Shown piece by piece: positions 9,420 to 16,313 of a stretch of 16,732 nt of DNA (position 1 is its first letter; every line of letters starts with the position of its first letter). The DNA is taken from contig JBDGTY010000039.1 of NCBI GenBank assembly GCA_042216335.1, positions 1 through 16,732 of the forward strand. Reading direction: 5' to 3'. The position numbers and the translations under genes are program-made. The notes under the pieces are model-generated. The model saw nothing but the letters and a program-made list of their open reading frames with translations. It had not been told where the DNA came from and ran no database searches. Source of the DNA: Candidatus Nanohalobium sp. (lineage in GTDB: Archaea > Nanohalarchaeota > Nanosalinia > Nanosalinales > Nanosalinaceae).

Positions 9420-9575
9420 CTATTCCTGGATGATCCTCTCCCTGGCCTTCTCCTCATCCAGACTTCCGTCGTGCTGGCGGTCGAAGTGCTGCTGCGCCCT
9501 GTGTACTGCCTCTCTTCTTGTGTCGGCCCTGAACTCACGTTCGCAGAGGCTGCATCTGTATCGGTATGGCATCAT
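9420..9575 (-). CDS. Small C2H2-type metal-binding protein (DUF1059-like), about 51 aa
   Basis: MMPYRYRCSLCEREFRADTRREAVHRAQQHFDRQH gives CxxC...HxxxxH. TTTATATA lies at 9603-9610 on the minus strand, about 27 nt upstream. Confidence 0.65.
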   Translation of the reverse strand: MMPYRYRCSLCEREFRADTRREAVHRAQQHFDRQHDGSLDEEKARERIIQE

Positions 9576-9697
9576 CTCCTCTCGGTCAAATAGGCGAAGT
9601 GGTATATAAAGAGTATTCTTACACTCCAATCCCTGTCACAGGAGGTACCGGTTCACCCCAGCACAATAAAAGAGTTTGTGTAATAAAGTTGAACTAT

Positions 9698-10762
9698 ATG
9701 CCACAGAGAATTCTGGAGAAGATAACCACAGCACAGGAGGAACACGCACTGGAAGTGATACTGCTGTTCTTCTTCCTGACGCTGGCGATGGTACCCGGTA
9801 TGGCAAGGGTCGAGACGATTGTGGCGCTGGAGAACATGATGCCTTCTAGTTCGACACCGGTAGAAGGGTTCAACAATCTCCGGGCTGAAGGAATCGGAAA
9901 AGATTCGATCGCAGTACAGGTCTCCGCAGGACAGACAGAGGAAGGCGTCAAGGACATCACAAGCAACGCATCGAGAAAGTACATCAACTTGCTATCCGGA
10001 GAGATAAACGAGATATACGGTGTTACATCAGTATACAACCCTACAGAGGTTCGGGGATTGACGGACAGTAAGAAACAGACCTCCGTCATAATAGCATACA
10101 CATATATGGGCGACTCCGGAAAGGAGATGGAGAGGATATTCAGGGAGATACGCCAGGAAGCAAAGTATAACAGGCCGGAAGGTATTGAAACACGGATATC
10201 AGGTGTTCCAGCCGTCCAACAGAGACTCTCCGAAATGGTTCAGCGAGATAAAAACGTAACGACAGCTATCTCTCTCGTACTTGTGTTTTTCATAACTCTC
10301 GGGCTTTTCCAGGGCAGCTTCTCATCCGCAATCATGCCACTTCTCGTGGTCGCACTCTCGGTCGTCTGGCTGTACGGAACGATGGGCTACCTCGGAATCC
10401 CGCTTTCCACTCTCGCAGGATCCGTCGCAGCACTCGTCATCGGGATAGGAATCGACTACTCGGTTCATATACTCAATACATACAGGTTCCACCGCAGGGA
10501 CAATACCATCGAGGAAGCATTATCCGAAGCAGTCGGTGAGACGGGGGTGGCGATTATCGCGACCTCTGTAACAACCATCAGCGCGTTCCTGGCTTTCCTC
10601 GTCGGAAAGATGCCCGAGATGCATCGCTTCGGATTGATCATGTCCATCGGCATCGGTTACGCCCTGCTCTTCAGCTTCTTCCTTCTCCCTTCCGTCTTCG
10701 TCCTGGAGGAGAGGCTGATGAAGAAAATCCATGAATCCATCAACTGGAGACACGACTTCTGA
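9698..10762 (+). CDS. Half-size RND/MMPL-family transporter subunit A (354 aa)
   Basis: One TM, an extracellular domain, then five TMs. ISGVPAV and GIGIDYSVH (TM4 Asp), AVGETGVAIIATSVTTISAF. Start at ATG 9698 (MPQRIL). Confidence 0.88.
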   Translation: MPQRILEKITTAQEEHALEVILLFFFLTLAMVPGMARVETIVALENMMPSSSTPVEGFNNLRAEGIGKDSIAVQVSAGQTEEGVKDITSNASRKYINLLSGEINEIYGVTSVYNPTEVRGLTDSKKQTSVIIAYTYMGDSGKEMERIFREIRQEAKYNRPEGIETRISGVPAVQQRLSEMVQRDKNVTTAISLVLVFFITLGLFQGSFSSAIMPLLVVALSVVWLYGTMGYLGIPLSTLAGSVAALVIGIGIDYSVHILNTYRFHRRDNTIEEALSEAVGETGVAIIATSVTTISAFLAFLVGKMPEMHRFGLIMSIGIGYALLFSFFLLPSVFVLEERLMKKIHESINWRHDF

Positions 10763-10771
10763 GGTACCATT

Positions 10772-11833
10772 ATGATAGTAGAGGAACTCGCGACAAGACT
10801 GGTCGAATACCAGGCGGAGAAACCCTACAGAGTGCTCCTGATACTTGGAATCGTCACAGCGATGATCGTCCCAGGGATGCTGCAGTTACAGATCAAACCC
10901 AGCACGGAAGCTATACTGCCGAAGGACGACCCGGTGGTCGAGTCACTGGACACGCTGAGAGCAAAGTTCGGCGGAGACACCACGTACATTGTGATACAGG
11001 GGAAAAACGACCTGAGAAACCGGGAAACGATGCAGAAACTGCTGAGGATCGAGAACAGAGTTCTGAGATCCCAGAACGTGGTATCTGTAATCTCACCTGC
11101 CTCAATGCTTGAGAAAAGGTATGGCCGGATACCCTTGGACCAGGATAAGCTTGAATCATTCAGCTACGGCAGCCTTATGGATGATGACTACCGGACCGCC
11201 ATAATCTCTGTCCGGGCGGACACACAGGCGAAGTCAGGCGAGATCAAGAACCTGTTCAACAACATCAAGCTGGCAGTAGAGGCCGAGATGCCGGGAACCG
11301 GCTACTACCTCACCGGCTACAACATGATCAACCTGGCCACGTTCCAGGTCATCATCAGCGACTTCATCCGTATAACCGCCGTATCCTTCACGGCCGTACT
11401 TGGAGTGCTCTTCCTGGTATTCAGGGACCTTAAACGCATGCTGCTGCCTATGACCCCGGTCATACTGGCCCTGGTCTGGATGCTCTGCCTCGGAGGATAC
11501 CTGGGAGCGGATCTGACGATCATCTCGATGGTCTCTGCTGCGATGATAATGGGACTGGGAATCGACTTCGGTATCCACGTCACAAAGAAGTACTTCTCCA
11601 CGAAGAGAGGTGCAGAAGGGATGAGCGAGACCATGACAGAGCTCTCCCGTGGGCTCCTGGGAGGCTCAACGACGACTGGAGTAGGCTTCCTGGCGCTTCT
11701 TGCAGCAAACCTTTCCGGCATGCACGCACTCGGCATCTTCCTGTTCACAGGCATCATGTCAGCCTACATCGGCGCAGTATTCCTGCTTCCAACCCTGATA
11801 ATGCTTGTAGACGGTGCAGAACCGGTTGCATAA
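10772..11833 (+). CDS. Half-size RND/MMPL-family transporter subunit B (353 aa)
   Basis: Same 1+5 TM layout with GLGIDFGIH and GGSTTTGVGFLAL. A GAGGT RBS overlaps the upstream stop codon. Confidence 0.88.
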   Translation: MIVEELATRLVEYQAEKPYRVLLILGIVTAMIVPGMLQLQIKPSTEAILPKDDPVVESLDTLRAKFGGDTTYIVIQGKNDLRNRETMQKLLRIENRVLRSQNVVSVISPASMLEKRYGRIPLDQDKLESFSYGSLMDDDYRTAIISVRADTQAKSGEIKNLFNNIKLAVEAEMPGTGYYLTGYNMINLATFQVIISDFIRITAVSFTAVLGVLFLVFRDLKRMLLPMTPVILALVWMLCLGGYLGADLTIISMVSAAMIMGLGIDFGIHVTKKYFSTKRGAEGMSETMTELSRGLLGGSTTTGVGFLALLAANLSGMHALGIFLFTGIMSAYIGAVFLLPTLIMLVDGAEPVA

Positions 11834-11848
11834 GGTGAAAATTATACT

Positions 11849-13147
11849 ATGGAAACAACAACACGACACACGGCATTCAAACTTGCATTTACGCTTTCGA
11901 TTATCGCATTTTCGATTTCAACAGTTTCAGCTGCTCCAAAACTTGATGGAGTAAGCTTTGATCCTGCATTCATATCAGCGGGCGATAGAGTGAATATCTC
12001 CACCAATCTCGAGGCAACACAGTACCCGGAGAAGGACTGGGATTCAGAGAAAGAGCTTAAAGCAGTTCTCAAGCCCGGCAACCGTTTGACCAGGGAATAC
12101 GTCACGATAGAGAAAAGCCGCGACGAATCTATAGGCTTCCTCTACCCGCAGGGAATCTGGAACCAGAAGTACCAGGTCAAAGTGGATTCAGGAGCACCGA
12201 CAGGCAACTACAGGTTCGAGATCCACATCCAGTACCTGGAAAACGGCGAACCAGTGAAGATAAGTACAGGAGATGGTGAGAGCAACTTCACAGTCATCAG
12301 GGACTTCACCATGCCGGTCGACAACGAAGGAGTCGATCTCTCAGCCAACGTCGAGAAAACAGAGCCGACCACTCCGAGACCGGGAGACGACTACGTCGAA
12401 GCCCATATCACCTACACCAACACAGGCAACAAACCACTGGAAGAGATAGAGATCAGGCCGGAGACACCAGTGAACATCTCACCAGCTTACTCTCAGAGTG
12501 AGAAATTCTACATCAACCAGCTTCTCGAAGGACAATCAGCTAAGAGAACGCTAACGCTGGAGCTTAACGAGGATCTGAAGCCCGGCCTCCACTGGATAGA
12601 TCTCAAAGCGACCTACGAGGACGAATCCGGCAATCCGTACTCGGAAACACTGAAAGCACCGCTCAGGGTGGAGGGCAGACCTGATCTCGAACTGGTCAAC
12701 GCGGAGACCGAGATGAAGGCCGGTGCCACGAAAAAGCTCCACATCAAGGTGAGAAACACTGGCGAACAGGATGCCGAATCAGTTACAGCAAGGATGATCG
12801 CGGAGAGAACACAGCCGTTTGCCCTTAAAGACAGATCAAACTATATAGGAGAGATAGAAGCAGGAGAAACAGGTGAAGCAGTGCTGAAGCTCTCCGCCGA
12901 GAGATCAGCCAACCTGAAAACCCATCAGGTCAAGATACAGCTTAGAGCAATGGGAGACAGCGAGGAAGGCGATAACTCGGTCTATACGTTCACGGAAGAA
13001 GTGAAGATCACGCTTGACGGCAGGACACAGTCCCCGCTCATATCTTTCGGCATAGCAGCGGCAGTCCTCGTGGCACTGGCAGCCGGCTACCGCTACTTCA
13101 AAAACGTGGGAAAATCCGAGGAAGAGGCACACGGAGGTGAGAATTAA
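11849..13147 (+). CDS. COG1361 S-layer-domain family / CARDB-like surface protein with signal peptide and C-terminal TM anchor
   Basis: Signal peptide ending VSA-A, repeated Ig-like beta segments (PGD...TYTNTGN, VRNTGEQDAESV, YIGEIEAGE), and a C-terminal hydrophobic helix followed by YRYFK. Confidence 0.8.
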   Translation: METTTRHTAFKLAFTLSIIAFSISTVSAAPKLDGVSFDPAFISAGDRVNISTNLEATQYPEKDWDSEKELKAVLKPGNRLTREYVTIEKSRDESIGFLYPQGIWNQKYQVKVDSGAPTGNYRFEIHIQYLENGEPVKISTGDGESNFTVIRDFTMPVDNEGVDLSANVEKTEPTTPRPGDDYVEAHITYTNTGNKPLEEIEIRPETPVNISPAYSQSEKFYINQLLEGQSAKRTLTLELNEDLKPGLHWIDLKATYEDESGNPYSETLKAPLRVEGRPDLELVNAETEMKAGATKKLHIKVRNTGEQDAESVTARMIAERTQPFALKDRSNYIGEIEAGETGEAVLKLSAERSANLKTHQVKIQLRAMGDSEEGDNSVYTFTEEVKITLDGRTQSPLISFGIAAAVLVALAAGYRYFKNVGKSEEEAHGGEN

Positions 13148-14501: not shown

Positions 14502-14867
14502 TTATTTCACCCAGGCTTCTTCCTTGCTTCCTTCTTCCAGGTTGCTGCGACCCCATTCGATCATTTCTTCGACAAGCGGGAGAAGTTTTTCGCCGAAATC
14601 TGTCAGCGAGTAGGTGATCTTGACAGGTTTCTCGTCCTCGACTTTTCTCTGGATTATGCCGCGTTCCTGCATCCGTTCCAGGTTGTCGCTGAGTGTCTTG
14701 TTCGTGATTCCGCCGATTTCTTTCTTCAGCTCGTTGAAACGTATCTCGTCGTTGTCTCCGACGTGGAACGTGATCACAGGCACCCATTTGTGCCCGAGGA
14801 TCTTGCTTGTGGACTTCAGCGCGCACCATTCGTCTCCTTTGCACCAGACCGGGATTCTTTCAGTCAT
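14502..14867 (-). CDS. HxlR/DUF24-family winged-helix transcriptional regulator
   Basis: WC.....WCALKSTSKILGHKW, RFNELKKEIGGITNKTLSDNLERMQERGIIQR and PVKITYSLTDFGEKLLPLVEEMIEWG. Confidence 0.92.
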   Translation of the reverse strand: MTERIPVWCKGDEWCALKSTSKILGHKWVPVITFHVGDNDEIRFNELKKEIGGITNKTLSDNLERMQERGIIQRKVEDEKPVKITYSLTDFGEKLLPLVEEMIEWGRSNLEEGSKEEAWVK

Positions 14868-14971: not shown

Positions 14972-15778
14972 ATGACCGGAAATAAAAGCATTAAACTTGA
15001 ATTCACGACGAAACAGGCAGCGGCCGCCACACTTGTGATAGGACTGGTGGCGGGCGGATTCGCGGGCTTTACCGCTGGAACTATGGCGGCAGCGCCGACC
15101 GGAGCACCGGCAGATGGAAATAAAGATGGTCAGAGAGCTCAGAAGGCGTCGGACAGCCAGACTTCGGAAGAGGTTTTCCGGCAGATATCGAACGATCTTG
15201 GGCTTGATACCAGCCAGGTGATGCAGTGCTACCAGAATTCCAGCAACAGTGAGGCCTGGGAGGACAAGAGGAAGGCGGTGCAGAACCTTGGAAACTTCGG
15301 GACTCCGACTTTTTTCGTTGGGAACCGCGATAAAGGTTTCGTCCGGATCACTGGAGCTCAGCCGCTTTCAAGCTTCGAGCAGGCGTTCAAAAAGGTCAGG
15401 AGCGACGATCCAGGGAACCTGACAAGCCTTGAGGGCATCGAGCTTGAGGGAGAGCCGAGCAAGGGTCGGGAAAACGCCTCGATAAAGGTTGTGGAGTACA
15501 ACGAGTTTGGATGTCCGTTCTGTTCGGAGTGGAACGGCTTTGATGCATCCGGCAGGACGCCGATCGACAGGATGAAGATAGCTGACAGCCTTGAGAGGCA
15601 GTACATCGATACAGGGAAGGTCGAGCTTATCGTGAAGGATTATCCCGTGCCTCAGTTGCATCCGAATGGTCCGAAGGCTCACAGGGCCGCGAACTGTGTC
15701 TTCAAGCACGAGAGGGACGGTTACTTCGACTTCCACGACGAGCTGTTCAAGAGGCGTGAAAGGTGGATGCAGGGCTGA
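14972..15778 (+). CDS. Membrane-anchored DsbA-family (Thioredoxin_4-like) oxidoreductase with circularly permuted domain order
   Basis: N-terminal TM, then LGLD...C, GTPTFFVG and ITGAQPLSSF (normally C-terminal), followed by EPSKGRENASIKVVEYNEFGCPFC...YIDTGKV....KDYP...HPNGPKAHRAANC...FHDELF (normally N-terminal). GGAGGT at 14954-14959 supports ATG 14972. Confidence 0.85.
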   Translation: MTGNKSIKLEFTTKQAAAATLVIGLVAGGFAGFTAGTMAAAPTGAPADGNKDGQRAQKASDSQTSEEVFRQISNDLGLDTSQVMQCYQNSSNSEAWEDKRKAVQNLGNFGTPTFFVGNRDKGFVRITGAQPLSSFEQAFKKVRSDDPGNLTSLEGIELEGEPSKGRENASIKVVEYNEFGCPFCSEWNGFDASGRTPIDRMKIADSLERQYIDTGKVELIVKDYPVPQLHPNGPKAHRAANCVFKHERDGYFDFHDELFKRRERWMQG

Positions 15779-15782
15779 TAGC

Positions 15783-16313
15783 ATGACCGCGACGATAGAA
15801 TTCAATCTAACGGGATGGTGGAAGGATTTTTTCCAGGGTTTGACGGCCTCGGTCTCAACAAGGAGGAGGGCTGTGGCCACTGTTTTCACCGGATCGGTGG
15901 CTTTCCTCCTCTCTATCTTTTCCGCTAATCCCGGCTACTCGATGCAGATGCTTTCCGCTGGAATCCGGTACTGGGGCATCGCGTTCATCACAAGGTTCAC
16001 CGGCGTCATCATGAACACAGGCTACACAGGCATGTTCCTGACCTTGATTTTCTCGGCACTGGTCGGGGTGACGATGACCAACACGCTGATTCAGTTAAGG
16101 ATGAACCAGGTTGATTTCAGCAGCCTCGGCGCCGTACCCGGGTTCCTCGCAGGAGGATGCGCCTCGTGCGGAGTCGGAGTCCTGTCGCTTCTCGGGTTCG
16201 GCGGGGTACTGGCATCACTACCATTCGCCGGGAACAGTCTGAGACTTGGCGGCGTACTGCTCCTGCTGGTGCTCATCGCCCGGAACGGCGACCCACGCAC
16301 ATGCAGCATCTGA
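15783..16313 (+). CDS. Uncharacterised membrane protein (about 4 TM) with a GCASCG motif and C-terminal Cys
   Basis: 176 aa starting 4 nt after the DsbA stop. Hydrophobic helices, GFLAGGCASCGVGVLSLLG, ends DPRTCSI. Confidence 0.75.
   Translation: MTATIEFNLTGWWKDFFQGLTASVSTRRRAVATVFTGSVAFLLSIFSANPGYSMQMLSAGIRYWGIAFITRFTGVIMNTGYTGMFLTLIFSALVGVTMTNTLIQLRMNQVDFSSLGAVPGFLAGGCASCGVGVLSLLGFGGVLASLPFAGNSLRLGGVLLLLVLIARNGDPRTCSI

Follow-up and report, generated by a model that had tools for sequence, protein, structure and literature searches.

Membrane recycling of exported thioredoxin-fold enzymes

To our knowledge, only three kinds of membrane protein recycle exported thioredoxin-fold enzymes: DsbB, VKOR, and the DsbD/CcdA type. 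Conductors of the last type possess six to eight helices, against four in the protein described here.

DsbB has its four cysteines in the periplasmic parts of the protein (PMC10907172), and in VKOR four cysteines are conserved (PMC4555120). CcdA is built on an inverted repeat, and a buried cysteine pair that switches sides has been proposed for it (bioRxiv 2022.09.07.506916). In the Scs system, both of the oxidoreductases ScsC and ScsB bind Cu(I) (PMC10907172). In MerT, a helix pair bearing a membrane cysteine pair acts together with cytoplasmic cysteines as a relay (PMC5715351). CPHC is the active-site motif of E. coli DsbA (PMC8366655); within the thioredoxin family, sequence is a poor guide to function (PMC7949104).

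A dsbA–X gene pair in Nanohaloarchaeota

The window, that is, the whole stretch of DNA analysed here, comprises 16,732 nucleotides of Candidatus Nanohalobium sp. (contig JBDGTY010000039.1), from a genome of 1.02 Mb that is 96% complete; among homologues that carry a name, the nearest are from Nanohaloarchaeota. A gene for a DsbA/BdbD-type thioredoxin-fold protein and one for a membrane protein, designated X, lie on the same strand with 4 nt between them, and an HxlR-family gene is divergent, 5′ of the pair (Table 1). ORF and hydropathy analysis agreed with the first-pass annotation on all coordinates, the size and spacing of X, its four hydrophobic segments, the Gly-flanked CASC, and the third cysteine. 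A divergent HxlR-family gene is found upstream at six of the six closest loci (L001–L006), and this regulator likely controls the dsbA–X operon. A sigma-70 promoter scan, whose model is of the bacterial type and ill-suited to archaea, gave no match at the operon. The universal stress protein gene downstream was considered as a part of the system and rejected; it is missing from the 45 commonest neighbour clusters and is probably unconnected.

Table 1. Features of the dsbA–X locus, in window coordinates
Feature	Position	Strand	Basis and remarks
HxlR-family winged-helix regulator	14502..14867	-	Pfam HxlR, E=1e-24
DsbA/BdbD-type thioredoxin-fold protein (P0001, 268 aa)	14972..15778	+	ATG 14972, TGA 15778; Pfam DSBA and Thioredoxin_4 in swapped order
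DsbA N-terminal membrane anchor (residues 15-41)	15014..15094	+	Hydropathy; only hydrophobic segment
GTP loop of DsbA	15299..15307	+	Motif read; precedes active site
CPFC active-site motif of DsbA (residues 181-184)	15512..15523	+	Motif read
Protein X (P0002, 176 aa), four-helix membrane protein	15783..16313	+	ATG 15783, TGA 16313; C-terminal hairpin MerT-related
CASC of X (C126, C129), Gly-flanked	16158..16169	+	Conserved in 149/150; predicted mid-membrane to inner leaflet, helix 3
C174 of X	16302..16304	+	Conserved in 141/150; predicted cytoplasmic
Universal stress protein gene, cut by contig end	16368..16732	+	Pfam Usp

Elsewhere in the window, the minus strand carries an ORF (3-2228) that we take, from reading the ORFs by eye, to be ribonucleotide-reductase-like, with an apparent intein containing a homing-endonuclease region; a presumably NrdR-like gene (2261-2701) stands before it. 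On the plus strand (9566-13147), two half-size MMPL/RND-type membrane genes are followed by a CARDB/Ig-domain surface protein (Pfam), and the run closes with a pair of small YgaP-like membrane genes and a gene for a methyltransferase.

A circularly permuted DsbA

P0001 passes both Pfam cut-offs for DsbA-like proteins (PF01323 and PF13462) and contains the CxxC, a helical insertion, and the GTP loop, which we take to be the cis-proline loop of the thioredoxin fold. DSBA positions 116–190 fall on residues 60–139 and Thioredoxin_4 positions 4–94 on residues 160–266; because of this permutation, the GTP loop lies 5′ of CPFC. The order of the Pfam matches bears out the earlier description of the protein as permuted, and the permutation is real. 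The protein is predicted to be membrane-anchored and to face outward. Engineered DsbA tolerates circular permutation.

An unpermuted close relative of P0001 has Bacillus BdbD, which is an oxidase, as its best PDB sequence match (E=5e-11), with further matches to 3f4r and 4pwp. P0001 resembles BdbD and class II DsbAs in being a membrane-anchored thioredoxin fold with a helical insertion, a CxxC, and a TP loop. It differs from them in the natural permutation inside the helical insertion, in its CPFC, and in an extra loop after the active site; its gene is, moreover, linked to X, whereas theirs are linked to DsbB/BdbC.

Permuted forms account for 13 of the 133 DsbA ORFs in the loci examined (11 distinct), all from Nanohaloarchaeota, and all ten inspected end at the same point of the helical insertion. 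Unpermuted proteins of three genomes (G004, G015, and G061) are nearer to P0001 than are three other permuted DsbAs, and a single clade of permuted proteins was rejected (AU p=1.8e-5; a quick tree of 10 versus 11 rows, an earlier tree having been seen beforehand). This implies that the chain was permuted there at least twice, or once followed by reversal; two origins at an identical cut are the more probable history. Pairing with X is equally seen for unpermuted DsbAs, so the system can do without permutation. In DsbAs of the core loci (L021:2211-3212 and others), an N-terminal C2H2-like zinc-finger segment, predicted to be cytoplasmic, precedes the anchor.

X defines a large family

Neither X as a single protein nor 150 members of its family matched any Pfam or NCBIfam model, and Pfam alone likewise gave nothing for 30 members. 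A PDB sequence search found no match for X or for its short paralogue (see below), and the ESM Atlas returned three archaeal clusters, all without names. The AlphaFold model is all-helical (pLDDT 87, lowest around CASC); Foldseek found no match to it at E<=0.001, and the best VIA-align hit (Z 8.3) is an unrelated helical bundle, with DsbB, VKOR, and CcdA outside the top 50 and MerF unlisted, an absence that is non-excluding.

A 30-row profile of X collects 1,725 representatives at 50% identity. It matches 62 of 70 Nanohaloarchaeota genomes (26 of the 28 near-complete ones), 31 halobacterial plasmid records, 68 genome loci mostly from Woese- and Pacearchaeota, 58 of 201 genomes in a further phylum of ~1-Mb genomes, and 13 of 201 Patescibacteria genomes, one of the 13 being a false match to SecY. 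C126 and C129 are kept in all but one of 150 rows and C174 in all but nine, at a mean column identity of 27%; at that identity, such conservation, for which the first-pass annotation had asked in the case of the CxxC, is not due to chance. X is a real, large, and widespread family without annotation.

A literature search, with supplements and most subscription journals outside its scope, returned no description of the X family or of an X–DsbA pair, no paper on DsbA and disulfides in Nanohaloarchaeota, and no naturally occurring circularly permuted DsbA; the accessible part of PMC11227280 contains nothing on the family. As far as that search reached, the family is uncharacterised.

Longer, fused forms of X numbered 0 among 7,998 candidates, a weak negative given that fusions were found in other searches. 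In Patescibacteria, X fusions (L171:484-1992, L176:424-2259, L179:1330-2937, and L178:222-1475) have large C-terminal domains with conserved cysteine motifs; these domains are cysteine-rich, three of the four share one type, and none has a Pfam name. Selenocysteine was considered in three distant X matches and rejected, the in-frame TGA codons being ordinary stops.

Predicted topology and cysteine placement

Hydropathy locates the hydrophobic segments of X at about residues 28–50, 79–105, 115–147, and 152–167. Over 150 rows, mean K+R is 4.4 at the N terminus, 2.5 in loop 2, and 2.7 in the C-tail, with 1.5 in the 36-residue loop 1 (D+E 1.7) and 0.2 in loop 3. The predicted topology has the N terminus inside, loop 1 outside, and loop 2 inside, followed by an outer turn (LPFxG), helix 4, and an internal C-tail. 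CASC lies ~11–14 residues within the uncharged 33-residue stretch 115–147, and not at its start as first described; from it to the predicted outer turn at P147 is a further 18 residues. The charge bias would place CASC mid-membrane or in the inner leaflet, contrary to the outer-face position that had been envisaged, and C174 in the cytoplasm. If so, a membrane cysteine pair together with a cytoplasmic cysteine would give the layout of a trans-membrane relay. C174 falls near the cytoplasmic-loop cysteine of MerT in an alignment that is weak.

C174 is kept in 106 of 110 DsbA-linked members versus eight of 19 copper-only members, counts in which kin are not independent, and in 30 of 31 members with neither DsbA nor copper neighbours. 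The copper-only contexts are dominated by a distinct, short-tailed type of X that lacks C174. This short-tailed relative, found in small-genome archaea (L354-L359, L169, L083, L100, L119, and L125), recurs in copper islands beside CopA, HMA, and cupredoxin genes.

Linkage of X to DsbA

Linkage was assessed in 160 loci, a set that includes the duplicates L115/L142 and L110/L170, and the counts ignore kinship. DsbA is encoded within 1.5 kb of X in 114 loci and is absent from that range in 46; the conservation of neighbourhood put forward as a check by the first-pass annotation holds across phyla. A same-strand DsbA gene within 150 nt of X is present in 32 of 40 Nanohaloarchaeota loci (40 of 43 matches; two cut by contig ends), 44 of 68 loci mostly of Woese- and Pacearchaeota, four of six halobacterial plasmid loci (hand-chosen from the 31 records), 13 of 30 loci of the further phylum of ~1-Mb genomes, and eight of 18 Patescibacteria loci. 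DsbA is upstream of X in Nanohaloarchaeota and mostly downstream in Woese- and Pacearchaeota, and among the neighbour clusters no other gene recurs as often. The window's genome holds a second X/DsbA pair, on contig C17, where an unpermuted DsbA lies inside a common cdc48-dsbA-X-map block. An X–DsbA fusion (P0266, 442 aa) occurs on one contig only and may be a read-through artefact. In the halobacterial plasmid loci L060-L065, genes for thioredoxins, YeeE/YedE, TauE, TusA, rhodanese, SCO/TlpA/CcdA, and copper functions cluster with X.

X alongside DsbB, VKOR, and CcdA

Among the 70 Nanohaloarchaeota genomes, DsbB is present in 41, VKOR exceeds the cut-off in 16, and DsbD/CcdA-like matches occur in 28. 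An anti-correlation of X with dsbB and VKOR, predicted at the outset, did not appear: DsbB or VKOR is found in 48 of the 62 X-bearing genomes (22 of the 26 near-complete ones) and neither in 14 (four of 26), and the window's genome itself encodes an intact DsbB (C45:1864-2463) with CRLC and a second cysteine pair. The argument from anti-correlation for X as a DsbB substitute was rejected on these counts. The absence of a detectable cytochrome c oxidase subunit I (COX1) gene from the genome does accord with the suggestion of little or no respiratory chain; DsbB and a CcdA-like gene (C67:1-662) are present there together with a single UbiA-family gene.

PF02683 (DsbD/CcdA) matches were obtained in 26 of the 62 X-bearing genomes and in none of the other 36 (none in 16 of the 26 near-complete genomes); as the matches are weak, a homologue may have gone undetected in some of the 36.

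DsbB appears to have a DsbA line of its own. In 14 of 25 dsbB loci (25 of 45 matches examined), a DsbA gene lies within 600 nt. A quick tree put 11 of 12 DsbB-linked DsbAs into a single group (SH-aLRT 91), separate from 24 X-linked rows; the remaining one is a long branch. The third DsbA of the window's genome (C4; CPAC, unlinked) is weakly placed among the X-linked rows, which counts against a clean X/DsbB split of the DsbAs in this genome. CP(F/Y/W)C is the motif in 88 of 104 X-linked DsbAs, and the 14 DsbB-linked ones have CPHC (four), CPVC (three), CPFC (three), or others (four). DsbB or VKOR genes occur within 1.5 kb of X at five loci (L071, L076, L077, L032, and L167), including loci of Woese- and Pacearchaeota, which is in keeping with complementary rather than redundant roles. 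Nanohaloarchaeal VKOR domains (L051-L054) are fused to a further membrane region of ~200 aa, and not to a thioredoxin domain.

By sequence, X itself belongs to none of these families, as the first-pass annotation had supposed. None of 150 members matched the Pfam models for DsbB (PF02600), VKOR (PF07884), or CcdA/DsbD-beta (PF02683 and PF13386), and hhalign gave 0.17%, 0.18%, and 0.26%, respectively, against shallow alignments of 9, 6, and 4 rows. Like DsbB and VKOR, X is a four-helix membrane protein with a CxxC and a genetic tie to a DsbA-like protein. Unlike DsbB, it has three conserved cysteines only and lacks a second outer pair, its CxxC being predicted to be buried and its third cysteine cytoplasmic; the conserved loop cysteines of VKOR are absent too. 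In its proposed job, X would resemble CcdA, DsbD beta, and ScsB, which connect a cytoplasmic thioredoxin to an outer thioredoxin-fold partner via membrane cysteines; it differs in having a CxxC in one helix plus a cytoplasmic cysteine, where CcdA/DsbD have two distant cysteines on inverted repeats.

Relationship to MerT and metal context

The Mer-like alternative of the first-pass annotation proved sound as regards ancestry, and in function it is still a live rival. X often adjoins a short paralogue of 130–160 aa. Profile comparison (hhalign) joins X to this paralogue at 97% and the paralogue to MerT at 88–91% (score 42–45; shuffled maximum 20), and the direct X–MerT comparison reaches 6% (score 22.4, against a maximum of 19.8 in 60 shuffles). 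With a 27-row MerT HMM, 13 of 15 non-mer matches among 6,276 ORFs were short-paralogue or MerT-like ORFs. Pfam MerT (PF02411) matched one of 150 X members, at E=0.021, and exceeded its cut-off in none of the 70 genomes. Judged by these profiles, X is a remote relative of MerT and not a MerT member, the link running through the short paralogue. The short paralogue (L002:1089-1487; plasmid matches H31-H70) reaches plasmids of Rhodococcus, Streptomyces, Arthrobacter, and Alphaproteobacteria, where it is recorded as ‘hypothetical protein’.

X shares with the MerT, MerF, and MerE hairpin a helix with an in-membrane cysteine pair, a short outer turn, a second helix, and a cytoplasmic cysteine (PMC5715351). 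It differs from MerT in two extra N-terminal helices, a missing third helix, and a CxxC with a single cytoplasmic cysteine in place of the vicinal CC and cytoplasmic pair. Its partner gene is dsbA in most loci, whereas MerT is partnered by merP and merA; a MerA-like neighbour within 1.5 kb was found in three of 160 loci and not in the window's genome.

Copper or mercury genes (cupredoxin, HMA, multicopper oxidase, CopA, MerA) lie within 1.5 kb of X in 28 of the 160 loci, among them just two of 40 Nanohaloarchaeota loci versus 13 of 30 in the further phylum of ~1-Mb genomes. MerA-like genes with a C-terminal CC stand beside X family members at L026, L098, and L185. In the window's genome, no HMA domain was found, and its two GGTCxNxGC flavoproteins both lack a terminal CC. 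At L155 (261-2001), a MerT-like gene with a vicinal CC (Pfam MerT, E=7e-5) stands between DsbA and X, with a cupredoxin gene adjoining; this arrangement may link the Mer family to that of X. In our reading, the superfamily comprises copper-handling branches and a DsbA-coupled branch that includes X.

What X may do

The interpretation that we tentatively place ahead of the others, while holding it to fall a little short of an even chance, is that X serves as a cysteine conduit of the MerT kind and thereby holds the surface DsbA in its reduced state, in the manner of DsbD, CcdA, and ScsB but without belonging to them. It would then be an alternative to DsbD/CcdA, so far undescribed, and not a replacement for DsbB. 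Electrons would flow outward from cytoplasmic thioredoxin via C174 and C126/C129 to CPFC; X would contact DsbA physically, and an oligomer or a conformational change would expose the buried cysteine pair to the outer side. The reduced surface DsbA might act as a disulfide reductase or isomerase, with a role in repairing or isomerising the disulfides of surface proteins, perhaps during copper stress, as is the case for Scs. By analogy with ScsB, which does this for ScsC (PMC10907172), the DsbA-coupled branch would most likely feed electrons outward. Several observations count for such a conduit: the window's genome encodes a thioredoxin (CGPC) and a TrxR-like protein with CAVC, linkage to DsbA crosses phyla, C174 tracks that linkage, PF02683 is unmatched in more than half of the X-bearing genomes, and, since DsbB is present with its own DsbA line, the oxidative job already has a candidate. 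Others count against it. X lacks an outer cysteine that DsbA could reach, DsbA is missing from 46 loci and C174 is nonetheless kept in neighbourless members, the best PDB match of the DsbA is an oxidase, and the characterised relatives of X are the MerT family alone, which moves metal and not electrons. Moreover, the CcdA-like gene of the window's genome, with its counterparts in other X-bearing genomes, means that X is not needed there as the only reductant carrier.

The relatives of X lead to an unlikely but serious competitor, in which X, like MerT, carries a thiophilic metal (Cu(I), Hg(II), or Ag(I)) and the DsbA-fold protein is its surface metal donor or thiol keeper. The transitive homology through the short paralogue, the metal neighbourhoods (above all those of the further ~1-Mb-genome phylum), the MerA-like neighbours, the L155 arrangement, and the Cu(I) binding of ScsC and ScsB (PMC10907172) all speak for it. 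It sits poorly, however, with the scarcity of metal genes around X in Nanohaloarchaeota, with the lack of HMA domains and MerA-type C termini in the window's genome, with the near-core status of X and its frequent place in the housekeeping cdc48-dsbA-X-map block, with the absence of Pfam MerT matches above the cut-off and the differing cysteine pattern, and with the fact that copper-island members are largely the distinct type without C174. A quinone-independent substitution for DsbB or VKOR, with X re-oxidising DsbA and passing electrons inward to a cytoplasmic acceptor, is considered improbable. It would draw on the same X–DsbA linkage, the BdbD match, the missing COX1, and the 14 X-bearing genomes with neither DsbB nor VKOR, but the other 48 have one or the other, DsbB-linked DsbAs form a separate line, and a reducing cytoplasm would be ill-suited to take up electrons from a DsbA-type oxidase. 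We regard with similar doubt a separate cysteine job for X, such as moving sulfur or persulfide, sensing redox state, or holding a structural metal, with DsbA co-regulated or X its client. On halobacterial plasmids, X does have YeeE/YedE, TauE, rhodanese, TusA, and MBL-fold genes around it, a rhodanese gene comes next after X in L066-L068, and 34 of 160 loci lack both DsbA and metal genes in the vicinity; the near-zero X–DsbA spacing in both gene orders and several phyla, the one fusion, and the lack of any comparably recurring neighbour are difficult to reconcile with it.

Implications

The family is a strong candidate for a further kind of recycler, given its 1,725 representatives, its lack of a Pfam or NCBIfam model, and its tie to DsbA across phyla. 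That X adds to DsbB, VKOR, and DsbD/CcdA a fourth class of membrane thiol-redox conductor, structurally independent of these three and with an ancestry shared with Mer transporters, is a conceivable outcome that we rate as somewhat less than evenly poised. If it holds, the class would be near-core in Nanohaloarchaeota and would extend to other archaea with small genomes, to Halobacteria, and to CPR bacteria, and the mercury relay of MerT would be one offshoot of a large and older family of electron- and copper-handling conduits. Cultured Halobacteria carry the X–DsbA pair on plasmids, which makes the proposal testable now. As for the DsbA, its circular permutation appears to be natural and to have arisen more than once at one site. 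These findings bear on the management of surface disulfides in non-respiring DPANN archaea and CPR bacteria and on the origin of the Mer transporters.
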